Shown: positions 7,532 through 61,033, counted from the stretch's first letter. The stretch: 64,000 bases of DNA from Candidatus Heimdallarchaeota archaeon (GCA_019056785.1 DXJV01000005.1:1-64000); one strand, 5' to 3'. The notes: generated by a model from the letters alone, not told the origin. A program made the numbers and translations.

Positions 7532-8086
7532 TTAAATTTTCTCGAGTTCTATTACAATCCATTGAATAGCTTCTTCTACCCCCACTCCTTCTGTAGCAAT
7601 TGTTGGTTGGATATGCCAGCTCCGGTTTTTCATCTGTTCAGGGTCATTCAATCCCAATTTGTGAATCAATTCTTCGATTGACATCGCCCCTTCTTTATCT
7701 TGCTTGTTCGCAACGATAAGTAAAGGTGCATCAGGATACTGCGGGTCAAGCAGCACTTTCCAGAGTTCAGTTTTAGCTTCTTCAAATCGTTCTCGGTCAG
7801 CAGAATCAATCACAAAGATTATTGCACTCGAACCTTTCATCAATGTTCCCCAAAGGTTGCGAAAATGCAGCTGCCCTCCAAGATCAAAAATGCTAAGATT
7901 GACGTTTTTCCTTTTCAAGACTTCAACGTTGACTCCGATTGTTGGTAACGTTTCGATGTTTTTTTCAAATCGCAAGAAATTAAGCATGGTGGTTTTTCCT
8001 GCAGCATCTAAACCCACAACAGCAATTTTAAATTGTTTTCGTTGTCTAAAGAGTCTTGCTAAAAAGCTCAATTGTCTCGTCCTCAT
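7532..8086 (-). CDS. Arf-family small GTPase (Asgard Arf-related)
   Basis: G1 GLDAAGKTT, PTIGxNVE, DLGGQ, LW, IFVIDSADRER, ANKQD, R-S-WHIQ; N-terminal amphipathic helix (L)SFLARLF. Start may be TTG at 8071. Confidence 0.95.
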   Translation of the reverse strand: MRTRQLSFLARLFRQRKQFKIAVVGLDAAGKTTMLNFLRFEKNIETLPTIGVNVEVLKRKNVNLSIFDLGGQLHFRNLWGTLMKGSSAIIFVIDSADRERFEEAKTELWKVLLDPQYPDAPLLIVANKQDKEGAMSIEELIHKLGLNDPEQMKNRSWHIQPTIATEGVGVEEAIQWIVIELEKI

Positions 8087-17972: not shown

Positions 17973-18563
17973 ATGTTCCCAAAAAATAATTATCTGATGA
18001 AATGGTGGCTTAGAGTGAAACTATTAGCGAAAGTTGTACTTGCAGGTGACGGTGGTGTTGGAAAAACAACTTTAATACATCGCTATATAACTAATAGTTT
18101 TATTGATTCGACAAAATTAACTATCGGTGCTGCTTTTCACACGCACGAAATAGAAATGGGCGAGCATTCGGTTTTGACACAAATCTGGGACCTTGGGGGA
18201 CAAGAGCAGTTTAAACAGATGGGCCTTTTCGACCGGTATTTTAAAGGCGCAACTGTCACGGTAATAATGTTTGATTTAACTCGTTTAAATACACTTAATA
18301 GCGTCCCTGAATGGGCCGAACTGGCGGTTAACTCGAGTAATACAAAGCTAATCCTTGTAGGCGGGAAAAAGGACTTGGCAAATGGCATTACTTTTACTCT
18401 GGACTCTTTCAAAGATTTAACTGATAAATACAAGTTCGAGTGTTATCATGAGACTTCTTCGGCAACAGGAGAAGGTGTAGCAGACGTTTTTAATTCGATT
18501 GCAAATATTATCATTGATACTACTATTGAAAAACAAAATAACGAAAACAAAGAAAAAGACTAA
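17973..18563 (+). CDS. Rab-like small GTPase
   Basis: GDGGVGKT, TIG, WDLGGQEQF, RYFKGA, GKKD, ETSS; the true start is probably a few codons downstream. Confidence 0.92.
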   Translation: MFPKNNYLMKWWLRVKLLAKVVLAGDGGVGKTTLIHRYITNSFIDSTKLTIGAAFHTHEIEMGEHSVLTQIWDLGGQEQFKQMGLFDRYFKGATVTVIMFDLTRLNTLNSVPEWAELAVNSSNTKLILVGGKKDLANGITFTLDSFKDLTDKYKFECYHETSSATGEGVADVFNSIANIIIDTTIEKQNNENKEKD

Positions 18564-34895: not shown

Positions 34896-35471
34896 TCAAT
34901 AATATTCTTCGAATGGTTCGTAATAATTGTGGGGGTGACCGCAAGAGGGACAGATCTTAGGTGGCTCTGTTCCTTCGTAGACAAATCCGCATTCCAAGCA
35001 TTTCCATTTAATTTTCTTGTCTCTTTTGAAGACTTTGTTGTTTTTCACAAGCTCCAAGAGTGCAAGGTAGCGTTTTTCGTGTTCTACTTCTACTTTTGCG
35101 ATGTTTTTGAATTTCAAAGCAATTTCTGGAAAGCCTTCCTTTTCTGCTACTTTCGCAAAACCTGGGTAGACTTTCGTATGTTCTTCGTTTTCTCCTTCTG
35201 CAGCAAATTTCAAATTTTCCTCTGTTGTACCGATGTCGGTTGGGTAGGCAGCTGTGAATTCCACCGGTCCTCCCTCAAGGAAGTCAAAGAACTGTTTTGC
35301 ATGTTCGTATTCGTTATCTGCTGTCTCTAAGAAGTATTGAGAAATGCGGATAAAGCCTTCTTTTTTAGCTACTTTCGCATACATGGTATATCTATTTCGT
35401 GCTTGCGATTCGCCGGCAAAGGCTTTCAAGAGGTTCTTTTCTGTTTCTGTTCCTTTAATTGATTTTCCCAT
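34896..35471 (-). CDS. rbr: Rubrerythrin
   Basis: [12 protein letters not shown], ExxH diiron motifs, C-terminal WKCLECG...CPSCGH rubredoxin domain. Confidence 0.97.
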
Positions 35472-35486
35472 TTTTTATCAACTCTG

Positions 35487-35867
35487 TTAGTTTTTCCAAA
35501 GGCTGTGCTTATTACAATATTCTCTTGCAATAATATTAGATGTATCTTTTACCATAAAGATTGCTTTTGGTTCATCGCCAGGGTTTAAATACTTTCGTTG
35601 TGTTTTCCCATCAGCGATGATTTCAATCCATTGAATCCAATGATCTTCAACCATTGGATGCAGTGTACTTCCAATGACCACTTCGACTTTCCCGCCGCCT
35701 TTATCTTCCACGACAGGAACGTGTTTCTCGTTTTTCCAGTCAGCTGTTTGTTCTTCTAAAAGAACCATTGGTTCGCCGCAGCAAACAAGGGTCCCTCCAC
35801 CTGCATTTAGAACTTCAACGATGTTCCCACAGATGTTACACTTATAAATTTGGTATCGTTCTGTCAT
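35487..35867 (-). CDS. dfx: Desulfoferrodoxin (2Fe superoxide reductase)
   Basis: [11 protein letters not shown]...[28 protein letters not shown]; ATG at 35867. Confidence 0.96.
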
Positions 35868-36011
35868 TACGAATTCACCAATTGGATTTACGTACGATTG
35901 ACCTTTATTAAATAATTTTTCTTTAAAAAGTGAAGAGAACAATTAAAGAGGAACTAAAAACTGTGACAAAAATTGCGCATTGAAAAAAATAGGGAAAGGC
36001 TGGGGATTATT

Positions 36012-37199
36012 TTATTTGGTTATACCCAGCTCTTTATGCTTTTGATAGATCGCGTTAGCGAGTTCGTCGAGTTTCTTTCGTCCTTCGTCTGTAAGTTTGC
36101 CACGCATGATCACAGGCTCAATGAATTCAGGATGAATTCTCGTCAAAATCCCAACCAATTGTTCTTTCAGTTTAGCTTTCCAGCCATAAGAGCCGATAAT
36201 AGATGCGAATTTTGCTTTTGGCCGTAAAGCATTTACGAGGTAGGTTGCGTAAATTGCAAGGGGATGTGCTCCGGTTAAGACCGCTGGGGCACCGATAACA
36301 ATAGTGGCTGCATCTACTAAATCCATGGCTAATTCGCCGATGTCAGTAACTGCAAGATTATAGGGTTTTACAGTAATACCTTTCTCTACGAGTTTCTCGA
36401 TGAAATATTCAACCATCTCTTGAACACTATGATGCATTGAAATAAATGGTAACACAACCTCATTCTTTACGTCGTCAGAGATCCATTCTTTGTATGCATT
36501 TATTATAAACTCTGGTTCTTGATGAACGGGGCCATGACTTGGAGCAATCATATCGAAGTCGTATTTTTCCAGTTTTTTGAGATTCTTAACAATGATTTTC
36601 CGGAAGGGCATCATGATTTCAGCGAAGTATCTTTTGGCAGAAGAGTATGTTAAAGGTTTGTCGACAACAAAAGTTTCACTCTGGGCAAGATGCGTACCAA
36701 ACATATCACAAGTAAAGATTATTTTGTCTTCTTTTACATATGTTGCAATTGTTTCCGGCCAGTGCACCCATGGAATGGTGACTATCTCTAATGTTTTGTC
36801 CCCTAAAGAGAGTGTTTCGCCATCTTCCCGTACAAGAAAGCGGTCTTCAGGAATGTGAAGATGAACCATTAAATGTTCTTTCCCTAAGCTACTGGTCACG
36901 ACCTTAGCTTTTGGATAAAGCTCGAGCATTTTCACCAAGCCTTCGGAATGGTCCTGCTCGCTATGATTGGAGATCAAATAATCAATTGTTTTTACAGGTG
37001 CTTGTTCAAGGTTGTGAAGCAATTCATAGACTTTCGTTCCATCAACGGTGTCAATCAAAGCAGTTTTTTCTGAACCGATTATCAAGTAAGCATTATAGGT
37101 TGTCCCATTTGGGAGGGGAATTAGCTGATCAAATAAGCGACGGTCATAATCCTTCGCTCCTACTGCATAAATTTTAGGCTTAATTTCAGTTATTGCCAT
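36012..37199 (-). CDS. fprA: Flavodiiron protein FprA (O2/NO reductase)
   Basis: GTTYNAYLI, NHSEQDHS, HWPE, CDMFG, PSHG, flavodoxin domain GSYGW. Confidence 0.95.
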   Translation of the reverse strand: MAITEIKPKIYAVGAKDYDRRLFDQLIPLPNGTTYNAYLIIGSEKTALIDTVDGTKVYELLHNLEQAPVKTIDYLISNHSEQDHSEGLVKMLELYPKAKVVTSSLGKEHLMVHLHIPEDRFLVREDGETLSLGDKTLEIVTIPWVHWPETIATYVKEDKIIFTCDMFGTHLAQSETFVVDKPLTYSSAKRYFAEIMMPFRKIIVKNLKKLEKYDFDMIAPSHGPVHQEPEFIINAYKEWISDDVKNEVVLPFISMHHSVQEMVEYFIEKLVEKGITVKPYNLAVTDIGELAMDLVDAATIVIGAPAVLTGAHPLAIYATYLVNALRPKAKFASIIGSYGWKAKLKEQLVGILTRIHPEFIEPVIMRGKLTDEGRKKLDELANAIYQKHKELGITK

Positions 37200-37366
37200 G
37201 TTTGCATCAACTCACATAGCTATTAATTTCCTTTGCTTGAAAAACTTATCCCAAAGAAAACTATAATTCATCCTATCTGAAAATTTAGATTCTAAACCCT
37301 CAAAATAAAGGGAAAAAAAGGAAATCACCAAGTAGCAACTTGGCTTAACTTTGCTATCTTGCATTT

Positions 37367-38017
37367 TTAATGCTTGAAAGACTCGAGTATTGCTTGTAAA
37401 AGCATTTCTTCTGGAACAAGCCCTTCAACATTTCCCTTCCCATCATTAATTATCGTATTTGGTACGCCAAAGATATCAAAGACTGAAGCAAGTTGAGCAA
37501 ACTGTGAGGCCTCAATCATCTCAGCAGTAATAAAATCGTTTGCAATGGCTAATTTGTGCGCACGTAATACCATCGCCGGGCAGTAGGGGCACTCGAGGGT
37601 AACAAACACCTTGAGATTAACTTTTTGTTTAATCGATTTCAACATTTCATGTGCTTGGGGTGATAGAATTGCATCTCGATTTGCAACAAGCATTATGGAT
37701 TCAACTAAAGTGGTGAATTCCTTTCCGGCCGGAACGCCGAAGAACCGGACGCCATAGTCTTTATCTCCTTCAATAACAATTGCAGGATGTCGTTCAATGC
37801 CATATTCTTTCGCTTTTGGATGACTTGCTTCACAATCGCAAATATCCAGCTCGATTTTATCTGATAAACTTGCTACCTCTGTCATCAGAGAAATCATTTC
37901 ATTACAGAATAAGCAATGTCCTTTTGTTGAAAAAACTCTGAGAGTAACGGGGTTTTTCATATCACTAAAACGTTGCTTGACAATTTGTCTAACACTTTCA
38001 TCTAATAATGTTGTCAT
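37367..38017 (-). CDS. Protein disulfide oxidoreductase (PDO / AhpF N-terminal-like, double thioredoxin fold)
   Basis: CLFC and CPYC motifs, GVPAGKEF, GVP. Confidence 0.9.
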   Translation of the reverse strand: MTTLLDESVRQIVKQRFSDMKNPVTLRVFSTKGHCLFCNEMISLMTEVASLSDKIELDICDCEASHPKAKEYGIERHPAIVIEGDKDYGVRFFGVPAGKEFTTLVESIMLVANRDAILSPQAHEMLKSIKQKVNLKVFVTLECPYCPAMVLRAHKLAIANDFITAEMIEASQFAQLASVFDIFGVPNTIINDGKGNVEGLVPEEMLLQAILESFKH

Positions 38018-38321: not shown

Positions 38322-40475
38322 TTGCAGCAGATTCTTGAAGAAGAGACTCGAGAGTTCCATTCACTCTTCGTACATGACTTTAATGTGGATGGTATTTCCG
38401 AAATAATTGCTTCACGCTTACAAAAAAGTAGCACAGAGATTAGTGTTCTTCATCCCAAACATCTTGCTAATTCTTCTGTGAAAATTAATGAACGCATTAA
38501 CGTTCTCTGTGTGGCACAGACAAGTTTGGATAAAGGCTTTGAATTAATAACTGGCGATATCAAAGGAGTCCTTCGGATCAATGCTAGAAATGGCCGTCCC
38601 TTTTATAGTAAAGATATTAAAGATGGCATTCGCTTGCCTTCCAGTATTTTGGCAGCCGCGCCAGGTGATTTGAATGGGAATAAGCTTTCTGAAATAGTCG
38701 TTGGTTGTGCAAATGGCGAAGTAGTAATGATTGAACGCATTCCTGGCAGAAAACACCGGTGGGATAAGATTCGCGGTTTCTCCTTGGGAAAAGTCTTCCA
38801 AAAACCAGTGACAACCATTCTTACAGGTGATTTCAATGGTAACGGTTATACTGGTTTCATTGCAGGCTCTGAAGATGGTTTTTTCAAGGAGATCGAATTT
38901 CGACCGCAATTACAAAAATTTGACCTTATTGGAGAGTTTAAAGTTGAAAGCCCTCCATCATTTTGTTTCTGTGGTGACTTTGACCGGGATGGTATCTCTG
39001 AAGTGATGGTAGGAGAGCAGTCAGGAAAACTCAATATCTTTAAACGAAATTATTTAATGTCGAGTCACACCTTAGATGGCGCTATAACTTGTGGTGTGGT
39101 TGGTGATGTAGATAATGACCACCAACTTGAGGTTGTGGTTGGAACTTCTCGGGGCTCTTTTCATATTCTTCGTTCGAATACAATTGAAACACATGAGGGC
39201 TACAGCAATATCGCAGACTTGAAAATCGGCGATTTATACGGAAATAGACAAAATGAATTGATTTTTTCTATAAATAAAAGACGAATTCTTGCTTTTACAA
39301 TCACACGTGATAAAGCCTCGGAAAAATCAAATGTTGAGTTGATCCCATTCAAGGACCCGCAACAATTACAAGCACGCACACCACAGCCATCGGTGGCACA
39401 AAATGCTTTCTGCCCGAATTGTAGCTCACAAGTGCGTTTTATTGAGCAATATCGACGATGGTATTGTTATACTTGCCGGCAATATGTCGCACCTGTAAGT
39501 AAGAAAGAAGAAGTAAAACGAAAGGTGCCAACGATCGAGGCGAAAAAGTATGGAACACCCTACAGTGTCGGCTCTCACTATGACCCTTATCGCCCCTATG
39601 AACCAACAAGGGAAACAGCTGCCGGTGGAGCATCGAAACTTGAGAAAGTAAAAGATAGAGTTGAGAGTAAATTAGCAGATCTTCAGCCTGGGCAAAACCT
39701 CGAGTGGCAAGAAGAAATTGATGAGAATGGTATTGTAGATGCTCAAGAAGATGTGAATTATTTTCTCCCCCTCGATTTAGAAGCTGACTTGGATGTTGGA
39801 GTGTCCATTTTTAATGACATCCTAAAAATAAAGCACGTAATTCTAATCCATTCCCAATCAGGCGTTCCTCTATTTAGTCAAGGCTTCGGAAAGGATATCG
39901 ATGTGTCTTTGACTAGCGGCTTTTTAAGTGCTGTTGGAACTTTTACTGAAGAAATGGCCGGCGAGTCAGAAAAGCGAATTGGAGTCTTTAGTGAAATTGG
40001 CCGTGAAGGATTCTGGATAATAATTTATGAAGGCGAAATGTCAAAAACCGCCCTCCTTGTTAGCGAAAAGATCGGTGAACACTTGAAAAAACGCATACAG
40101 ATTTTCATGAAAGAGTTTGAACAAACATTTAAAACAGAACTTGAGAATTTCAATGGCTTTATCTCCGCTTTTAAGGGAGCAACCGACCTTTTGGAAAAAC
40201 ACCTGCGCTTAGAATACCTTTATCCACTCAAGATGGATGCTAAAAGAATGCGGCTAACAGCTATCAACCAAAATGAAAAAACCTTGGCAAAAGCATTCAC
40301 AGATTTTCTCAGCCAAACAGACGAAGAGGTTTTCTATGTGACAGAATTAATTGATGTTATTATGCAAGATCCAAAGAATAACCTCCTAAAGGAAGATGTT
40401 CTTAAAATTCTTATTAAATACCTCGAAAATGGCATGTTAATCCCTCTCCCTCCCCCACCAACAGAACATGTTTGA
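38322..40475 (+). CDS. Cytosolic FG-GAP beta-propeller - Zn ribbon - longin - winged helix protein
   Basis: Seven (G)Dx(N/D)xDGxxE-like repeats; CPNC...WYCYTC; longin segment HVILIHSQSGVPLF...LTSGFLSAV..F.EE; C-terminal wH-like region; no signal peptide or TM. Confidence 0.8.
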   Translation: MQQILEEETREFHSLFVHDFNVDGISEIIASRLQKSSTEISVLHPKHLANSSVKINERINVLCVAQTSLDKGFELITGDIKGVLRINARNGRPFYSKDIKDGIRLPSSILAAAPGDLNGNKLSEIVVGCANGEVVMIERIPGRKHRWDKIRGFSLGKVFQKPVTTILTGDFNGNGYTGFIAGSEDGFFKEIEFRPQLQKFDLIGEFKVESPPSFCFCGDFDRDGISEVMVGEQSGKLNIFKRNYLMSSHTLDGAITCGVVGDVDNDHQLEVVVGTSRGSFHILRSNTIETHEGYSNIADLKIGDLYGNRQNELIFSINKRRILAFTITRDKASEKSNVELIPFKDPQQLQARTPQPSVAQNAFCPNCSSQVRFIEQYRRWYCYTCRQYVAPVSKKEEVKRKVPTIEAKKYGTPYSVGSHYDPYRPYEPTRETAAGGASKLEKVKDRVESKLADLQPGQNLEWQEEIDENGIVDAQEDVNYFLPLDLEADLDVGVSIFNDILKIKHVILIHSQSGVPLFSQGFGKDIDVSLTSGFLSAVGTFTEEMAGESEKRIGVFSEIGREGFWIIIYEGEMSKTALLVSEKIGEHLKKRIQIFMKEFEQTFKTELENFNGFISAFKGATDLLEKHLRLEYLYPLKMDAKRMRLTAINQNEKTLAKAFTDFLSQTDEEVFYVTELIDVIMQDPKNNLLKEDVLKILIKYLENGMLIPLPPPPTEHV

Positions 40476-40611
40476 CTTGAAATTAGGTTCTCTTCCTAAT
40501 ACTAAAAACTTAAGTGTTCTTTTACTTATTCTTTTTGTACTTGTAAAAGAAAATGCAAAATTGTAAACCAATAAATTAGTTAACATAGATTTATTGAATG
40601 GTGAATTTGAC

Positions 40612-43600
40612 ATGTCAGAATTGGTTAAAAAAGCCATGGTGTTCGAAGAAAAAGGAAAATGGAGCAATGCTGCGAAAAGCTATTTACAAGCAGCGAGAGA
40701 AGCCGTTGAAACTAACCAAACAAAAGACGCCAAGAATCTCTTTTTAAAAGCAATTGCTGCTTCTGAAAAAACCGAAGACAATCTCTTATTAGTGGAAAGT
40801 GTTTTTGCGTATGAAAAAATTGCCACTAAAGCTGAGAAAAAAGAAGTGCTCCCAAAGGCACTGCCGGCTGTTAAAAGTTTGTTAGCTCTGGCATTAACTA
40901 AGAAGAAGAATCTACTGGCCTTTGAATATTTAGAAAAGAAAGAACTTATTAGTAGAAGTACAGGTGTGGATTTAGAAGAGACCTTAAGAGAGAAAGGCGA
41001 GGTCTCAAGACGTCTAGCCTTAAAAATGGTTATCAGTAAAAAAGTGGAGGAACGAGAACGTGGTTTTGCTTTCCTGAAAGAGGCTGCAAAATGCTTTTTA
41101 GAAATTAATGCCATTAAAGAGAAATTTAAAGGTGATTTCCAAGCTTTCCAGTTGTTAATGGAAAAGGGTTTTATAAAAGAGGGGTTCAGTTTATTTGAAA
41201 AGCTCATCAGTTTTTGTGAAACTAATCAACTTGCAGAGGAAGCAACAACCGTTCTTCAGCAAATAATTACTTATGCAAATGCAATTTTAAATGGAAAAGG
41301 ATCGAAAAAATTGGTCAAAGCGCTTCAAGCAACTTTCTCTTCTGCGGATCCTGGTGGAGAACTCTTGAAAATAGGCATTGAAAAAGCGCAGGAAATAGGC
41401 GCAAATGAAGTTATAGTCGCTGCAGCAACCATACAAGTTGAGCAAGGCAACCTGCAATTCAATAAAAAGAAATTTGATATTGCTAAACGCCTTTATGAAA
41501 AGGCTTTACTTCTTCTTACAACAATTCAAGCTGTAGATACTGCGAAAAATGTTTTCAAGCAAATTGCCACCAAAGCGTACACCTTACTTGATACGAAAGG
41601 GAAATTCCAACTTGCACTCGATTATTTTGCAATGCTTCAAATTATGGAAGAGCTCGATAAAGGCTTTCTCGCTGACTTCTTTGTCGAAAAAGGAGCCAAC
41701 ATGTTTCAACGGGATCTCATCACTTTGGCGTTAGAGGATTACAAAAGTGCTTGTAGAGTTTATCTCTCTGGTCAGCTAACTGTAAAGTTCGAAAAAACTG
41801 TTAGTATAATTTTTGAAAAAAGTTTGGAGCTTATAGCGCATGCGGACTTTCAAAATGCCCTCATTTATTCACATGATGCAATTTCCATTCTCCTTAAGGT
41901 TGAGAAATTTGAAAACATAGGTGAGCAGGCTTCTAAAATCGCGCATGCCTTACTCGAAAACAATCAACTCCCTGAAGCAGAAGATTTTGTAAAAATCGCA
42001 TTTGACAACTTCCTCAAAGCCGGAAAAACCGTAGAAGCAGCCACTACTTACAAAACCATGGGTGAATCTTTCCTTGCTCTTGAGCGATTTGAAACAGGGG
42101 CTGGATATCTCATTCAGGCAGCAAAAACATATCGAAGTGCCGAAGCTGAAGATAAAATCATGCAGACAGCAAAGCCTCTCCTTAAAGCTGCCATCGATCA
42201 ACTTATAGATGGGAATGCAGACCTCGCACAATCATTAAATCTTAAGGCTATTGAATGTGCGAAAGAAAAAGGTCCATTGGCACAAGTCGAAGTACTTCAG
42301 GAGTTTAATACTCAAGCGATGATTTCTAACCAACCAAAGTTAGTTTTAAACAACATTCAGCTGGCCACTAAAATTGTTGGAGCGAATTTTCCGGCTGAAA
42401 AAAGAGCTCTGGCGGAGAAAGCGATATCCTATGGTCAGCAACTGATAATTTCGAATCAGCAATTTAAGCTGGGAACTGATTTTATCACACATGCTGTTTT
42501 AACTCTGGCTGAACTTGGAGACAGTACCCAGAGTAGTCAGATCATCTTTGAAATTGGTTCTTTACTTTTTGAGAACAAACAACCGGAACTGGCAAAAGGA
42601 CTGTTGCAATTAATTACTCAAGTCTTAAAAACAGAGGAGAATCCTGAAGTTTTCGGAACAAACGTTGCGAATGTTGCCAAACTTCTGATTGAAAATCGAT
42701 TTGTTGATGATGGTATTGATCTCTTGCGCAAGAGTGTTGGCTCCTATCTTAACGTAGGCGGCGTTGAGCCGGTCATTAAATTGGCTCGCTATTGTGCTCT
42801 AAAAGCACAGGAAAATATGGCAGCGGGTGATGTTGTGTTTGCCAAACACTTGTTTATTGCTGCAATGGAGTTCAGTACCCTCGTTGATTTGGAAGTTCAG
42901 AGCGAGATTTTAACTTCCGCAACAAATGCTTTTCTCGAGATTGGTGATTTCTATACTATAAATGAATTTTATGACTTTGCTAAGGCAAATCTCGAGGGTG
43001 AAAAAGACTATTTGGGAAAAGTGGGCCGCTTACAAATTTTCCAAGGGAGTACTTTGCGTGATCAAAAAGGGTTGGTAGATGAAGCCTCAGAATTTATACA
43101 CAATGGTATTGCAACCTTAAAAGAAGTTGATATGATTGCCGAAGCTGGCGAGGTTGCGCTCAATCAAGGAAAAGCTTTCATTGAGAAGGGGAATTTTGTC
43201 TATGGTGAAGAATTGATTGAAACTGCAGCTCAAATCTTCATTCAGTTAAATGATATTGAACGTTCTGGCGATGCCTTCTTATCCCTTGCAGAAATTAACA
43301 TGCAAAAGTCGCAATGGCAAGATGCTTTTCAGCAGATTGAACTTGCGAATAAATCCTATAGTCAAACCAACTTGGACAAACTTGCTTCCACAATTATTAT
43401 CACTGCAGATATCGGACAAAAAGCATTAATAAATAAACCCGCTGAAAACAAAGAATTTGCTTTACAATGTTTTGATAGAGCAATCCAACTCGCCAATGAG
43501 CATAAGCTCTTTGCCAGTGAGGTAGATGTTACTTTACTCGAAGGACGGGCGTTTGCAACAATTAAAGATCACCAAACTGCTTACAACTTCTTTTTACAAC

Positions 43601-46600
43601 TTGCAAACTTGCTCGAAGAGAAGGATGAAACCGAGAAATCCCCGCTAATCGCTGAAGAACTCACTACTTTTGCGACAATATTCATTGCTGATAATGAAGT
43701 TGAGTTAGGACTCCAACTGGTAGATTTAGCAACAGCTATTTATTTGCGTCTTGGCCAGCCAATAAATGCTTCGGAGACTTATATGAAAGCCTGTAATGCT
43801 TTATTGAAGATGAACAAAATCGTTCAAGGCGTAAAGCTTGTGCTTCTTGCTTCTGATACTTTAATGGTAGCAAATGAATACAAACATGCTGTGAGAATTT
43901 TAACTGAAATTGTTGATTTCCTGTATGATTTGAAAGACTATCAAAATGCTGCCATTGTTGCTGGCCAAATCGTCACTGTTCATCAAAAAACCGGCGAAGT
44001 TGAAGAACAAAAGAAAGTGATAAATCGATTAGTCGAAAAGGCAATCGAAGTGATCAATGAGGGCAGAATCATGGAAGGAGAACAACTTTGGGAGCAGGCA
44101 GCCAATTTTAGCATCTCCGTTGACTTGGATTATGCACTTCAAATCAATGACCAAAGAATTGAAAATCTCTTGAACGCCGGCATGTATAACTCTACTAATA
44201 ATGCCTTCAAACAGTTTTTGCCAATTCTAGAAGAAGATAAGGAAAAATTACTTTCACAAGTTGTAAAGATAGCCGAAATTACTGATGATCTTTTTGCGAA
44301 AGAAGAATTCAAACTGGCAAAGGATTTTGTTTTCACGGCAGTTGATTATTACCTTAAAGCTGAGGAATTTGATCAGGTAATAACTTTCTGTTTGGATGTT
44401 GGTCAACGGTTTATTGTTGCTAATGAGGAAACAAGTGGCATTGAGTTGATTGACAAGGCAGCATTTATTGCTAACGATTCTCTAGGTGCACATGAAGCTG
44501 CGAAAATCTACCTTCGCACAGGATTCTTACTTGTTGAAAAGGACTACAATGAAAGTGGTTTTCTGGCAATAAATAAAGCTGTTGACATTGAACTTCAAAC
44601 GCAAAATATGGAGGGGTGTAATGAACTTGGTGAGATTGCTATTGAAAAAGCAAATGAACTCATTAACCATAACATTCCTCTTGCAATTAAAATTTATGAG
44701 CAAGCTTCGCAAATCTTTCAGAAAGCATCTAATTTTATTAAAGCAGGAGAAGTACAAACAACGATTCTTAATGCCTTCTTAAGTCTTGGAGATGCAGTTG
44801 GAGCAATAAAAGCTTGCGAACAAGCAGTTGATTATTATCTAAAAGGGAAAAATAGCGAACTTGCCGCAACCGCTGCAAGACAAATAATTGAGTCTTCGAG
44901 GAGATTTTTCGATGAAAATGACTTTCCAAAAGCCGTGTTAATTCTCGAGCGCGGACGATTCTTGGTGGAAAAGACAACAAGATATGATCTTTTGGATTTG
45001 ATAGTCAGTATCTACATGAACGCTGCAAATCAGAACCTTCCAAATAGAAAATCTGCCATTGGTGTGTTTTTCTTGAAGCGTGCAATTGCAATTGCCGAAA
45101 GCAGCCCCGACCCAGAAGAAATCAAAAAAGTAGTAAACCTCTCATTAACTATTGCTTTGGAAACCATTAAAAAGAAAAACTCTCTTGCAGGAGCAAAAGT
45201 CCTGGAAATGATCTCTCGACTCGAGATTTCTAAAAATGCTCTCTTGTCTCAATTAACCGCGACTCTTCTTGATGCTCTAAAACTCACTTTAGAAACAGAA
45301 TGGAATATGATCGGGAAAGTACTTCGAGATGCTTTTCATTTCTTTAAAGGCGCCAATCAAGATGAAGCAATTAAAGAGTTAATTTCCATTTTGACAAAAA
45401 GAGCAAATGCTGACTTGCTCCTCAATAAACCCCAACTTGGCTTCTTCTTTTTAGAGCATGCAATCCGGATTGTTAATGAGTCTGGAGACAAAGAACTAAT
45501 GTTTTATCTTGGCAATGACCTTCTCGAACAGTTCCTCGTTTTGCATGAGGAGGTAACTTTCGATTCTCTCTATCGGTTGCTTGGATATTGCTACCAAATT
45601 TTCCAACAGATTCAAGACTTGGAATCCATCACTCGTGTTGGGGCAGAGTTTGCTAAATTGGGTTCAAAGGACCTTATTAATAATATGCAATCAATCCGTG
45701 GCTATGAGTCTCTCTTAACTGCAAGAGATATTGCAAGTCAGACACAAAATAGTGCGCTTATGAAAGCTGTTGTGCTTGCTCTCTTAGATTTTGCGATTCA
45801 ACAATCTGCGAAAAATGCCAATTCTGTGCTGTCAACCTTAGAGGATATTGTTCAAGGGTTAAAAGAATTCGAAATACCAAAGTCAACATCAGTAGCTATT
45901 GATTACGCTTCCTTGCAAAGTTATCTTAAAACTCTCACCTCTTTTGGCAATAAAGTCAGTAAAAATGATAAAACATTCAAGCTTGGGAAGAAGATCATTC
46001 AAAATTGCTCTAGATTACTCGCCCTCACCGGCAACCATCTTGAACTCGAAAAAGATTTAGCTGATGTCAAAAAGAACATGCAGAAACTTTGTCGCCGGGG
46101 CAATCAAGAGGCAGCTTATAAATTGCGAGAAGCAGCCATTGTTTTTATTGATTTGAATGAAACAAACCAGGCCATTAAAATTGCTGAAGATGCTTTTGCA
46201 GCTTCCCAACAACTACTAGAGCGGAAAAAGTACCTCGATTCTGTGGAATTTGCTAAAGTGAGTTTGGTTGTTAACCAAAAACTCGATATCACTTCTGAGT
46301 TAAAAAACATCGGCTTATTTGCCTACAGTTCAGGTGACCGGCTTATAAATGAAGGCAAAATTCTGGAGGCAATGGACTTTTATGATATTGCAATCGAGGC
46401 CTTCGATTTATCAAATGACGATGAGAATTCTAATCGCTTGATCAACAAGATTGTACAGACGCGTGAATGGGATGCCAATAAAATGGTTGCTTTTCAAGTC
46501 TATAAAATAGCCTCCGAATCAGCCATTCGAATGAAAAACTGGCAGAAGGCTCATGAAATTGCCAATAAATGTTATAATCGTGGTATTGCTTTTATCGACC

Positions 46601-47523
46601 AACCACGGGTTCCAACTGAAATATCGCTAAAATTCATCACCCTTGCCGGGCGAATTTTTGAGGATATAGGTGCAATCAAAGATGCTGCCAATTCCTATGA
46701 TTCTGCCATTCTAAAATTCATTCGCTTAATGAGAACCAGAAAAAACATTGAATCAATAATTACTGAGCTTCTTGTAAAAACGGGAATAAATCGAATGGCT
46801 GGTTGTGATATGGACTCACTTGAGACCATCTTTCTGCGAGTCATGGAATTAGCTGAAATGAAGAAGTCCAAATACACGAAGATCATCTCTCGCGTCTTAA
46901 AACTCATTAATTCTTCTAAGGTTGGTCAAGCATGGGACTTGATGGTTTCTCTTCCTTATGTCTCCCATGGGCGAATCCGGAAAATTATTGGAACAACAAA
47001 GCGTCGGATAATTTACGACCTTCAGTCCAAAGGAACTTTCGATCGTACGGTTCTCTCTACAACAGACCGCTCTTTACCGCTTTCAGATTATCTCATCGAA
47101 AATCTCTTAATTTCCCGTAAAATTGATGGGCAATCAATAAACAAAGATGTCTTTATTTCTGCTACGAAAATTAAAGCCATTCGTTCGTACTTTTATAATG
47201 AATATGAGCTTTGGGGTCGAGTTGATTTAGAGGCTCTTACAAAGGAATTTGGCGTCCTCCCCACCGATGCAGCATCCATTGTCCGGCGGGAATTTCTCCC
47301 CACAATTTATATGGCGGTACTTGATACAGAGCAAAAAGTCTTCTATTCTTTTGACCGCTTAAAAGCTGAAATCTCTCTTATTCTTGGACGTGAACGTAAA
47401 AAGAACGCTCATTTTGATCCCATGCAAGTTGCTTCGGAAATGCATGTCCCTCCTGATATCATTAAAGAGGTTCTTCGGGAAATTTCTTGCGATGAAGTAG
47501 TGGAAAATGCTCCTACAATGTGA
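40612..47523 (+). CDS. Giant (~2300 aa) alpha-SNAP/TPR-like solenoid with C-terminal PCI-like winged helices
   Basis: Recurrent A..Y..AA..F helix pairs along about 2100 aa; C-terminal GRVDLEALTKEFGV...AVLDTEQKVFY and a further HTH; ATG at 40612 with GGTGA RBS. Confidence 0.82.
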   Translation: MSELVKKAMVFEEKGKWSNAAKSYLQAAREAVETNQTKDAKNLFLKAIAASEKTEDNLLLVESVFAYEKIATKAEKKEVLPKALPAVKSLLALALTKKKNLLAFEYLEKKELISRSTGVDLEETLREKGEVSRRLALKMVISKKVEERERGFAFLKEAAKCFLEINAIKEKFKGDFQAFQLLMEKGFIKEGFSLFEKLISFCETNQLAEEATTVLQQIITYANAILNGKGSKKLVKALQATFSSADPGGELLKIGIEKAQEIGANEVIVAAATIQVEQGNLQFNKKKFDIAKRLYEKALLLLTTIQAVDTAKNVFKQIATKAYTLLDTKGKFQLALDYFAMLQIMEELDKGFLADFFVEKGANMFQRDLITLALEDYKSACRVYLSGQLTVKFEKTVSIIFEKSLELIAHADFQNALIYSHDAISILLKVEKFENIGEQASKIAHALLENNQLPEAEDFVKIAFDNFLKAGKTVEAATTYKTMGESFLALERFETGAGYLIQAAKTYRSAEAEDKIMQTAKPLLKAAIDQLIDGNADLAQSLNLKAIECAKEKGPLAQVEVLQEFNTQAMISNQPKLVLNNIQLATKIVGANFPAEKRALAEKAISYGQQLIISNQQFKLGTDFITHAVLTLAELGDSTQSSQIIFEIGSLLFENKQPELAKGLLQLITQVLKTEENPEVFGTNVANVAKLLIENRFVDDGIDLLRKSVGSYLNVGGVEPVIKLARYCALKAQENMAAGDVVFAKHLFIAAMEFSTLVDLEVQSEILTSATNAFLEIGDFYTINEFYDFAKANLEGEKDYLGKVGRLQIFQGSTLRDQKGLVDEASEFIHNGIATLKEVDMIAEAGEVALNQGKAFIEKGNFVYGEELIETAAQIFIQLNDIERSGDAFLSLAEINMQKSQWQDAFQQIELANKSYSQTNLDKLASTIIITADIGQKALINKPAENKEFALQCFDRAIQLANEHKLFASEVDVTLLEGRAFATIKDHQTAYNFFLQLANLLEEKDETEKSPLIAEELTTFATIFIADNEVELGLQLVDLATAIYLRLGQPINASETYMKACNALLKMNKIVQGVKLVLLASDTLMVANEYKHAVRILTEIVDFLYDLKDYQNAAIVAGQIVTVHQKTGEVEEQKKVINRLVEKAIEVINEGRIMEGEQLWEQAANFSISVDLDYALQINDQRIENLLNAGMYNSTNNAFKQFLPILEEDKEKLLSQVVKIAEITDDLFAKEEFKLAKDFVFTAVDYYLKAEEFDQVITFCLDVGQRFIVANEETSGIELIDKAAFIANDSLGAHEAAKIYLRTGFLLVEKDYNESGFLAINKAVDIELQTQNMEGCNELGEIAIEKANELINHNIPLAIKIYEQASQIFQKASNFIKAGEVQTTILNAFLSLGDAVGAIKACEQAVDYYLKGKNSELAATAARQIIESSRRFFDENDFPKAVLILERGRFLVEKTTRYDLLDLIVSIYMNAANQNLPNRKSAIGVFFLKRAIAIAESSPDPEEIKKVVNLSLTIALETIKKKNSLAGAKVLEMISRLEISKNALLSQLTATLLDALKLTLETEWNMIGKVLRDAFHFFKGANQDEAIKELISILTKRANADLLLNKPQLGFFFLEHAIRIVNESGDKELMFYLGNDLLEQFLVLHEEVTFDSLYRLLGYCYQIFQQIQDLESITRVGAEFAKLGSKDLINNMQSIRGYESLLTARDIASQTQNSALMKAVVLALLDFAIQQSAKNANSVLSTLEDIVQGLKEFEIPKSTSVAIDYASLQSYLKTLTSFGNKVSKNDKTFKLGKKIIQNCSRLLALTGNHLELEKDLADVKKNMQKLCRRGNQEAAYKLREAAIVFIDLNETNQAIKIAEDAFAASQQLLERKKYLDSVEFAKVSLVVNQKLDITSELKNIGLFAYSSGDRLINEGKILEAMDFYDIAIEAFDLSNDDENSNRLINKIVQTREWDANKMVAFQVYKIASESAIRMKNWQKAHEIANKCYNRGIAFIDQPRVPTEISLKFITLAGRIFEDIGAIKDAANSYDSAILKFIRLMRTRKNIESIITELLVKTGINRMAGCDMDSLETIFLRVMELAEMKKSKYTKIISRVLKLINSSKVGQAWDLMVSLPYVSHGRIRKIIGTTKRRIIYDLQSKGTFDRTVLSTTDRSLPLSDYLIENLLISRKIDGQSINKDVFISATKIKAIRSYFYNEYELWGRVDLEALTKEFGVLPTDAASIVRREFLPTIYMAVLDTEQKVFYSFDRLKAEISLILGRERKKNAHFDPMQVASEMHVPPDIIKEVLREISCDEVVENAPTM

Positions 47524-52761: not shown

Positions 52762-53802
52762 TTAATTTTCACGAAGCTTCTGCAATGCTTGGTAAGCTGC
52801 TTCAGAAACAATCTTGTAGTTGCTTTTTTTGGCACTTTTTAATGCTTCTTTAACAGATGGGTCGCCAATTTTTCCCAAGGAAAGAATAATCTCTCGACGA
52901 ACGAAGGGGTTTGTATCGGTTCCTAATATTTCAACTAAATTTGGCACAGTACGCTGATCAGTCAATTTTCCCAACGCTTCTGCACACACTCGCCGGACAA
53001 TGTAGGATTGGTCTCGCAATAAGGTCCGGCTGAGAATACGGACTGCTATGTCCTTTATTTTTTCAAATCCTTCGATCTCTTCTTTTCTACTTAAATGGTG
53101 TTGTAAGATATTACCGATAGCAAAAACGATTTCTCTTTTCGCAAGTTCAAAGGATTCTTTTTCGAGGGCTCTACAAAGGACTTGGATAGATTCAATAGCT
53201 TTTATTCGATGGAGTGCCCATGCTGCAAGCATTCTATTTGTGGCGGTTGTGTCTTGTTGCAAGGTTTTTTCAAGAGCTACTCTCGCCGGTCGGACTTGAA
53301 CTTTCCCCAGAAGCCAAATAACTGCACGCCGAATCATTTGAGACCTGCTAGATGTCAGTAGTTTTAACAATTGATCGAGGATCGATTTGAAATTATAATT
53401 TTGGAGCCCAATTATCGCCCAATACTTAACCTCTTCACTAGTATCATTTAAGGCTTTCAAGAGGATTTGATAAGCTTCTTTTGTTTGTAATTTTCCGGCA
53501 ATCCAAATGGCTCGTGCGCGTAAATAACGATGTTCAGAAGTGTCAAAAAAAAGGTGTTTAACAATCTCAAATAATTGTCTGTCTTGTTTATCGAATAAAA
53601 GAAGGAGTGCCAGTTCACAAACGATATAGTCAGGGTCCTTGTTAATAATTGTCTTTAAAAGGTCATTAACTTCTGGTGTTTGCATATCTTTTAAGTAGAG
53701 AACTGCATTAAATCGTTCAAAGGGATTTGTTGATTGTAATTGTAGTTTGATCTGTTGTAAAGTTAGTTGTTCTGGTGGCTTTTCGGCGTTTAAATCTGTC
53801 AT
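52762..53802 (-). CDS. HEAT-repeat (PBS lyase-like) protein
   Basis: About 10 repeats of D....VR..A..ALG.I. Confidence 0.88.
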   Translation of the reverse strand: MTDLNAEKPPEQLTLQQIKLQLQSTNPFERFNAVLYLKDMQTPEVNDLLKTIINKDPDYIVCELALLLLFDKQDRQLFEIVKHLFFDTSEHRYLRARAIWIAGKLQTKEAYQILLKALNDTSEEVKYWAIIGLQNYNFKSILDQLLKLLTSSRSQMIRRAVIWLLGKVQVRPARVALEKTLQQDTTATNRMLAAWALHRIKAIESIQVLCRALEKESFELAKREIVFAIGNILQHHLSRKEEIEGFEKIKDIAVRILSRTLLRDQSYIVRRVCAEALGKLTDQRTVPNLVEILGTDTNPFVRREIILSLGKIGDPSVKEALKSAKKSNYKIVSEAAYQALQKLREN

Positions 53803-60373: not shown

Positions 60374-61033
60374 TTGGACTTTCACGAAGAAGAAGAAGAA
60401 TTCACAGACCAAGAAGCATTAGATGATGAAGAATTTACAGAGGAAGATATAAGTCGGTTTCTAGTAACAATCCCTCACAATCGAATTGGCGCATTAATCG
60501 GTCCGAAGGGACGTGTAAAATCCCGTTTGGAAAAACTAACAGGTGTTGATATTGAGATTGACAGTTCCTCAGGTGAGGTGCTCATTAGTTCAACAGCAAA
60601 TTTGAAGGATCCTTTTCTCATTTTTAAAGCGAGAGACTTTGTGCAAGCAGTAGGTCGAGGATTTAACCCAGAAGCGGCTTTTACTCTCTTAGATGATGAC
60701 ATTTATCTCGAGATTATTAATTTAAAATATCTTCTAGGAAATAATCCAAACAAGTTACGACGTTTTAGAGGGAGAATAATCGGACGGGAAGGGAAAACGC
60801 GACAAATTATTGAAGAAACAACTGGTACCAAAATTTCTGTCTTTGGGAATACCGTAGGTATAATCGGGACACATGACCGGTTGCGAGTGGCGAAAGAAGC
60901 AATAGAGATGCTTATTGGTGGCTCAAAGCATGGCACTGTCTATTCTTACCTCGAGGAGAAAGCACAAACATTCAAATTAAGTTCTCGTGAGTTGTGGGAA
61001 AAAGCTTCGAAGGATGCCAGAAAACCATTCTAA
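60374..61033 (+). CDS. KH-domain ribosome biogenesis protein Dim2/Pno1
   Basis: RIGALIGPKG, AVGRGF.PE.A, GRIIGREGKTR, GSKHGTVY; conserved aIF1A-RIO1-KH cluster. Confidence 0.93.
   Translation: MDFHEEEEEFTDQEALDDEEFTEEDISRFLVTIPHNRIGALIGPKGRVKSRLEKLTGVDIEIDSSSGEVLISSTANLKDPFLIFKARDFVQAVGRGFNPEAAFTLLDDDIYLEIINLKYLLGNNPNKLRRFRGRIIGREGKTRQIIEETTGTKISVFGNTVGIIGTHDRLRVAKEAIEMLIGGSKHGTVYSYLEEKAQTFKLSSRELWEKASKDARKPF

Follow-up and report, generated by a model that had tools for sequence, protein, structure and literature searches.

The search for precursors of the eukaryotic trafficking machinery has turned to Asgard archaea, where a beta-propeller, a longin domain and a giant alpha-solenoid encoded side by side look like such a forerunner. 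Is such a forerunner what lies at positions 38,322 to 47,523 of a 64,000-nucleotide stretch from Candidatus Heimdallarchaeota archaeon (GCA_019056785.1, DXJV01000005.1:1-64000), the window of this study? Two adjacent genes stand there, gene A for a multidomain propeller protein and gene B for a helical-repeat giant, which the original prediction had taken for an undescribed archaeal coat or scaffold complex. What we find is a recent, lineage-specific combination of widespread, mobile Asgard parts. As parts, FG-GAP/BBS-like propellers, the Roadblock superfamily and tetratricopeptide repeats (TPR) are all familiar, and what is new is their fusion and pairing at this locus. The pair would resemble an adaptor of the BBSome or KICSTOR kind only by analogy. 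The reading that we favor tentatively, at slightly below even confidence, is that A and B, which are confined to one small Heimdall-type lineage, form a lineage-specific soluble adaptor/scaffold in which the propeller docks on the C-terminal end of the solenoid and a Roadblock-winged-helix module of gene A pairs with like domains. The locus therefore offers two leads, a weakly predicted propeller-TPR contact and an uncurated Roadblock-winged-helix module found on many surface proteins and Ras-like GTPases, and its build at the level of one genus from mobile parts guards against over-reading such parts lists.

A propeller protein beside a helical-repeat giant

An open reading frame (ORF) scan of the window found both genes on the same strand at the positions first proposed, and ORFs of this length cannot arise by chance at 38% GC. 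The start of gene A is supported by its first residue (MQQTLE...), which is shared by 24 aligned orthologues. The ORF of gene B opens at 40594 (40594-47523, plus strand), and the database form has 2303 residues; this length puts the start codon at the ATG of 40612 and gives the gap of 136 nt that had been predicted. About 20 full-length orthologues are available for each gene, with identities of 55-86% for A and 48-55% for B, and those of gene B are 2302-2306 residues long. Neither protein has a signal peptide or a transmembrane helix by hydropathy.

The structure of gene A was modeled with AlphaFold2 from 24 orthologues, with a mean predicted local distance difference test score (pLDDT) of 68.8 and values of ~75-90 in the domains. 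The strand map of the model and the sequence together give an N-terminal propeller of seven four-stranded blades, each with an FG-GAP motif of the D-x-N/D-x-D/N-G type (residues 19-27, 78-82, 115-124, 169-178, 218-227, 261-270 and 303-312). A Cys4 zinc ribbon follows, CPNC-x14-CYTC, whose four Cys residues are invariant in 24/24 orthologues and which forms three short strands in the model, with weak Pfam Zn_ribbon matches. The disordered linker behind it varies in length and sequence among orthologues while conserving GSPY, PY and NYFLPLDLEAD motifs. The cytosolic seven-repeat propeller, the zinc ribbon and the winged helix first read from the sequence are thus all present in the model. At the very C-terminus stands a PLPPPP tail that is peculiar to gene A orthologues; among 126 modules of the wider family only one carries it, and that one is a gene A orthologue. 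A TPR protein or some other partner that binds proline-rich peptides could dock on this tail. As for a reader of the tail, the Pfam profilin model has no match in the genome, although it is also silent in every control genome.

Which propellers does that of gene A resemble? The protein exceeds the Pfam cut-offs for FG-GAP (PF01839; 43.2 bits against 22.1) and FG-GAP_3 (PF13517; 38.1 against 26.9) and stays under the cut-offs of 27 for BBS2_Mid (25.6 bits), Beta-prop_BBS7 (23.2) and Itfg2 (18.1). Secreted Asgard FG-GAP proteins with TSP3 repeats exceed the very BBS2_Mid and Itfg2 cut-offs that gene A misses, so the BBS-type models are not specific. When the propeller was compared with the Protein Data Bank (PDB) by sequence profile, human ITFG2 came first (E 4.4e-10 over 72 residues, or two blades), followed by bacterial lectins, BBS2 (E 0.079) and BBS7. 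Whole-model fold searches of gene A were entirely taken up by the propeller. By Foldseek, the ITFG2 chains of KICSTOR ranked at the top (E 7e-14) with BBS2/7/9/1 next, and structure alignment with VIA placed BBS2 as the best match, which bears out the closeness of the fold to BBS propellers. Bacterial FG-GAP/VCBS propellers of the ESM Atlas, however, fit equally well, with template modeling (TM) scores by target of up to 0.72. The likeness to ITFG2 and BBS2 is therefore real but not exclusive, as bacterial and extracellular FG-GAP propellers are about equal.

Gene B was likewise found to be the solenoid of about 2300 residues ending in winged helices that had been foreseen. An AlphaFold2 model of residues 1104-2303 (pLDDT 87.8) shows ~50 regular helices in unbroken hairpins to residue 2113, followed by the pair of winged helices. 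For the N-terminal half the evidence is from sequence: hhalign places this half on the C-terminal repeats in several registers (88, 81 and 63%), and its Pro and Gly content is equally low. The Pfam SNAP model is over its cut-off in four stretches, and the chain reads as a stack of antiparallel helical hairpins. Conservation is highest in the C-terminal 420 residues. Foldseek matched the C-terminal half to the IFT-A TPR subunit, Ski3 and Ctr9 at TM scores of 0.1-0.18, and the ESM Atlas returned bacterial TPR proteins at TM scores below 0.33. The solenoid thus matches only generic TPR/SNAP scaffolds, resembling alpha/gamma-SNAP and long TPR scaffolds such as Ski3, Ctr9 and the IFT-A TPR subunit. 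The closest language-model look-alikes of the winged-helix pair are UFL1 N-terminal winged-helix clusters (0.89, at low recognition), a likeness that we treat as a lead only; gene B has no Pfam PCI or UFL1 match, though helical repeats capped by winged helices fit that architecture. Between the winged helix of gene A and the pair of gene B, hhalign found no similarity (0.3%).

The source genome and its relatives encode a second giant helical-repeat protein of 2306-2308 residues (G000:C18:33088-40005, L014; also L012:5149-12075), 18-19% identical to gene B. The two proteins are thus of nearly equal length despite such divergence. A 733-residue protein near this paralogue in genome G082 was compared as a possible counterpart of gene A and is not gene A-like.

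With both proteins described, the likeness to eukaryotic systems can be set out. ITFG2 of human KICSTOR (PDB 9v6e chain B, 9o5a chain G) is likewise a cytosolic seven-bladed propeller of the FG-GAP type, and it sits in KICSTOR together with a giant scaffold. ITFG2, however, has no zinc ribbon, Roadblock domain or winged helix, and gene A has all three and, unlike ITFG2, is confined to one genus. No SZT2-like fold was found for the C-terminal half of gene B among the best 50 matches listed by Foldseek and VIA-align, in which long repeat models are poorly searched. The BBSome subunits BBS2, BBS1, BBS7 and BBS9 (PDB 6vbu, 6voa, 4v0m, 4yd8) have a propeller fold close to that of gene A, but these subunits continue behind the propeller with a coiled coil and with GAE, platform and alpha-helical domains instead of a zinc ribbon, disordered linker, Roadblock domain and winged helix. 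Protocoatomer proteins (COPI, COPII, clathrin, Nup, HOPS) join propeller and solenoid in one chain, whereas here the two fall to two genes and the propeller runs on into a zinc ribbon and a Roadblock domain.

Could the pair nevertheless be a true homologue of KICSTOR (ITFG2 with the giant SZT2), of the BBSome (BBS2/7/9 with TPR subunits and Arl6) or of a protocoatomer coat? Such descent would agree with the first rank of ITFG2 by sequence and by Foldseek and with that of BBS2 by VIA; by analogy, the titles of KICSTOR structures suggest that the propeller may bind the C-terminal end of the giant partner, and Asgard BBS7/ITFG2-like propellers have been catalogued as eukaryotic signature proteins (10.64898/2026.10.28.762692). 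Homology is nevertheless very unlikely, because gene A is limited to a single genus, misses the family cut-offs and lacks the accessory domains, and because the solenoid is of a generic type. Of the predicted coat or scaffold complex, a candidate adaptor/scaffold pair with a weakly predicted contact survives, and we do not regard the pair as ancestral to eukaryotic coats, the BBSome or KICSTOR.

The Roadblock-winged-helix module and its Asgard family

The C-terminal part of gene A holds the domain whose identity had to be revised. The domain first labeled a longin is, in the whole-protein model, built in the order helix-strand-strand-helix-strand-strand-strand-helix (H490-500, E503-510, E516-521, H528-546, E556-561, E564-570, E574-580, H586-602), and its first helix is aligned with helix 1 of Roadblock proteins; the longin order (strand-strand-helix-strand-strand-strand-helix-helix) starts without such a helix. 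When 126 module sequences were compared by hhalign with the nine Roadblock proteins of the source genome that match PF03259, the probability reached 86.8% (E 4.2e-6, 116 columns), spanning the whole domain including the N-terminal helix. Residues 487-603 are therefore a divergent member of the Roadblock/LC7 superfamily, and the longin label is right only at the superfamily level. The Longin (PF13774) and NPRL2-type (PF06218) Pfam models have no match anywhere in the genome, and the Roadblock/LC7 model (PF03259) does not match the gene A module directly. Together with the helical connector and winged helix behind it, the domain forms a module that matches no Pfam family: the two halves of the module and the winged-helix end of gene B gave nothing usable against Pfam at E<=10, and no meaningful match came up when the module was searched, by sequence and by profile, in the chains of the PDB. 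The Roadblock platforms of MglB-MglA, Ragulator-Rag and dynein LC7 have their fold order in common with the module, whose profile is significantly similar to PF03259-positive proteins; the module differs from these platforms by its attached winged helix and by a sequence too divergent for the Pfam model.

An exhaustive profile search with residues 478-717 recovered 923 cluster representatives at E<=1e-3, 336 of them reaching 1e-10, in proteins of ~230 to 2640 residues. In most of those listed the module lies near the C-terminus, and the winged helix accompanies the Roadblock domain in most matches. By hydropathy, the majority are type-I proteins with a signal peptide, a large ectodomain (FG-GAP, LVIVD, MG2/MG4, Big_1, SBP_bac_5 or TSP3) and one transmembrane helix ~40 residues ahead of the module, which makes up the cytoplasmic tail. 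Cytosolic fusions join the module to Ras-family GTPases in a Rag-like layout (P0054, P0057), to HerA/FtsK-type ATPases, and to HEAT, TPR and PCI/UFL1-like winged-helix regions. All family members that bear a taxon name are Asgard, from Hodarchaeales and Lokiarchaeia including Lokiarchaeum ossiferum. To date, the Roadblock-winged-helix combination, a module without a name of its own, has been seen in Asgard archaea alone. Liu et al. described an Asgard Roadblock/longin superfamily shuffled among many architectures, with Rag-like GTPase-Roadblock fusions (10.1101/2020.10.19.343400). The gene A module is like that superfamily in its divergent Roadblock type, its many architectures and its small-GTPase fusions, and it differs in combining Roadblock domain, helices and winged helix in a form that has no Pfam model. 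We found no description of the single-pass receptor-tail architecture or of the propeller fusion in the literature searched.

Besides gene A, the source genome holds six further copies of the module. The closest paralogue is a type-I propeller receptor (G000:C5:631-3084; E 6e-36), another copy is a six-transmembrane protein, and three stand behind TPR-like helical N-terminal regions, with Pfam TPR confirmed in the two that were scanned. In one further locus (L028:6257-7985, G000:C72), a 137-residue Roadblock/LC7 gene immediately precedes, in the same orientation, a gene for a 424-residue protein that starts with the module, and the two are possibly a heterodimer operon. Roadblock platforms bind small GTPases in MglB-MglA and Ragulator-Rag. 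Indirectly, the Ras-module fusions and the Roadblock gene adjoining a module paralogue suggest that the module, too, may serve as a dimer platform for a small GTPase.

Because both A and B end in winged-helix domains, it is conceivable that these domains bind DNA and that the pair is a giant transcription sensor-regulator in the manner of the TPR-helix-turn-helix proteins MalT, SARP and Rap/NprR. The ESM Atlas and VIA lists for the solenoid do include AfsR/SARP, Rap, NprR and PlcR, but these are generic TPR matches. The winged-helix regions match no DNA-binding Pfam family, the best look-alikes of the gene B pair are protein-binding winged helices of the UFL1 type, and in the module family the winged helix mostly sits on membrane-anchored tails. 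We consider a DNA-binding role extremely unlikely.

Those membrane-anchored tails lend themselves to a bolder proposal, namely that the Roadblock-winged-helix module is an Asgard pairing device and that gene A is a soluble adaptor coupling the tails of surface proteins to the 2303-residue scaffold via the propeller-TPR contact. We rate this proposal as improbable. If it held, the module would connect the cytosolic machinery with single-pass surface proteins by the hundreds, and prokaryotes would have a cargo-adaptor system of independent assembly that operates in the manner of the BBSome or KICSTOR. More broadly, such modules could give Asgard archaea a general path by which the cell surface reaches GTPase switches.

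Adjacency, predicted contact and small GTPases

In a set of 400 Asgard genomes, orthologues of gene A are confined to the genus of the window, where 10/10 genomes have one, and gene B orthologues occur in the same 10 genomes and in a sister genus, where the contig ends within the gene so that its neighbor is not visible. In every genome of the genus with both genes assembled, A and B are adjacent. The propellers that come closest from outside this genus are remote (E>=1e-16) and include a widespread 555-residue propeller-winged-helix family and a 788-residue propeller-Ras fusion. The 555-residue protein (L047-L057, L061; 12 genomes, Asgard family f20) is cytosolic, carries two winged helices behind its propeller and exceeds the Pfam cut-offs for BBS7, BBS2_Mid and Itfg2; it is probably the catalogued "BBS7/ITFG2" cluster (10.64898/2026.10.28.762692).

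Two side observations concern these remote relatives. Beside the 555-residue gene lies a convergent 148-residue gene of no known family in 12/12 loci and a 720-residue DUF11 protein in 11/12; the former scores against the Roadblock-winged-helix module with an hhalign probability of only 12% (E 0.0025). The 788-residue Asgard protein (L059:7679-10045, G333:C5) joins a BBS7/BBS2-like FG-GAP propeller, over its Pfam cut-off, to a C-terminal Ras/Roc GTPase, and ORFs of ~770-830 residues match its propeller in several genomes of that family.

To what extent does adjacency reflect a physical partnership? A complex prediction was run as one three-chain job with the propeller, the module and residues 1874-2303 of gene B. 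It gave an interaction prediction score from aligned errors (ipSAE) of 0.55 (runs at 0.55, 0.56 and 0.53) against 0.00 in three controls, which the tool rates as "weak support". At least 69% of contacts recur between runs, and the pLDDT of the partner is 80 or higher. Replacement of the propeller chain brought the ipSAE down to 0.00, so the contact is probably made by the propeller. The mark set for ipSAE is reached by 58 of the 80 solved complexes and by 2 of the 110 mismatched pairs, but of the passes at 0.60 or under only 7 are among the 80 solved complexes, and both passing mismatches lie there. Taken together, the prediction gives weak support for binding of the propeller to the C-terminal end of gene B.

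Several results weigh against the adaptor/scaffold reading. On the rival reading, gene A would be a soluble member of the module family with partners of its own, gene B would be a general TPR scaffold, and their order would simply have been kept in a young lineage. Upstream of gene A on the opposite strand lie thioredoxin, ODP-type metallo-beta-lactamase, desulfoferrodoxin and rubrerythrin genes, and downstream of gene B lie a convergent major facilitator superfamily (MFS) transporter and two ATP-binding cassette (ABC) exporters, so that A and B stand by themselves on the plus strand as a unit of two genes. The flanking genes are conserved too, and because the whole neighborhood is syntenic, A and B may be adjacent simply through inheritance of an old gene order. 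The most divergent relative (55% identity) has a glyoxalase gene inserted between A and B. The spacer, AT-rich with runs of T, is 131-135 nt in orthologous loci and poorly conserved, and an alignment from four genomes shows no conserved promoter or terminator. The gene B paralogue does without a gene A-like neighbor, lying in the source genome and its relatives among unrelated genes (GHMP kinase, beta-CASP nuclease, Alg9-like glycosyltransferase). The complex score falls in the weak zone, where by the tool's own rating a pass at 0.55 is more often wrong than right unless binding is already likely, and the three-chain job departs from the calibration of the tool, so the odds of A-B binding are raised only modestly. 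Finally, none of the 33 small-GTPase-like ORFs of the genome is closer than 19 kb to gene A.

Against mere neighborhood stand the ipSAE of 0.55 that vanishes in the three controls and on the propeller swap, the restriction of A and B to the same small family with both together throughout the genus, and the same-genome paralogues in which TPR and module are fused in one chain. On this balance we regard independent neighbors as unlikely, though by no means far-fetched, and we keep the adaptor/scaffold reading as our tentative preference.

How might such an adaptor work? In a first step, the ITFG2/BBS2-like propeller of gene A would dock on the conserved C-terminal end of gene B, formed by the last TPR-like repeats and the tandem winged helices. 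In a second step, the Roadblock-winged-helix module would pair with a second copy of itself, with a small Roadblock protein or with tails of identical type on single-pass surface proteins, after which the Roadblock pair may bind a small GTPase in the manner of MglB-MglA and Ragulator-Rag. In a third step, the 2100-residue repeat surface of gene B could recruit further clients. Observed are the domain anatomy, the architectures across the module family, the narrow range and the conserved adjacency; from these comparisons we infer the binding of A to B, the dimerization of the module and any GTPase or membrane link.

For the GTPase, the original prediction had looked to the Arf and Rab-like genes of the window, a proposal to which the gene neighborhood lends no support. 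The window does encode an Arf-family GTPase (7532-8086, minus strand; Pfam Arf E 3e-52) and a Ras/Rab-like GTPase (17973-18563, plus strand; E 1e-34), which lie 30 and 20 kb from the pair; both belong to the usual signature genes of Asgard archaea, and neither is linked to it. A GTPase link would instead be suggested by the module fusions and by the known behavior of Roadblock platforms.

Feature coordinates and flanking genes

The features of the pair are collected in Table 1.

Table 1. Genes, domains and spacer of the A-B pair, in positions of the window
Feature	Position	Strand	Residues and remarks
Gene A (P0001)	38322..40475	+	717 aa, cytosolic multidomain protein, TTG start; from ORF and 24 aligned orthologues
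Seven-bladed FG-GAP beta-propeller	38322..39305	+	aa 1-328
Cys4 zinc ribbon	39405..39494	+	aa 362-391; C364, C367, C382, C385
Disordered P/Y/E-rich linker	39495..39755	+	aa 392-478; pLDDT <50 across 394-478
Divergent Roadblock/LC7-superfamily domain (first labeled longin)	39780..40130	+	aa 487-603
Helical connector and winged helix, second half of module	40131..40445	+	aa 604-708; AlphaFold2 pLDDT ~80-89
C-terminal PLPPPP tail	40443..40460	+	aa 708-713; invariant in 24 orthologues
A-B spacer	40476..40611	.	136 nt, AT-rich, T4-T5 runs
Gene B (P0031)	40612..47523	+	2303-aa helical-repeat giant, ATG start
SNAP/TPR-like alpha-solenoid	40612..46950	+	aa 1-2113
Tandem winged-helix domains	46966..47349	+	aa 2119-2183, 2184-2246; AlphaFold2 model residues 1016-1143
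Conserved C-terminal helices	47350..47520	+	aa 2247-2303; AlphaFold2, many invariant columns

The upstream genes form an oxygen-defense cluster (34896-38017, minus strand; rubrerythrin, desulfoferrodoxin, ODP-type metallo-beta-lactamase and a double thioredoxin) that is divergent from gene A and kept in all relatives examined. Farther downstream, a 346-residue protein (52762-53802, minus strand) consists entirely of HEAT repeats of the PBS-lyase type, with weak echoes of adaptin-N and mTOR domains, and at 60374-61033 (plus strand) the window encodes a Krr1/PNO1-like double-KH protein, a ribosome-biogenesis factor of the eukaryotic type.

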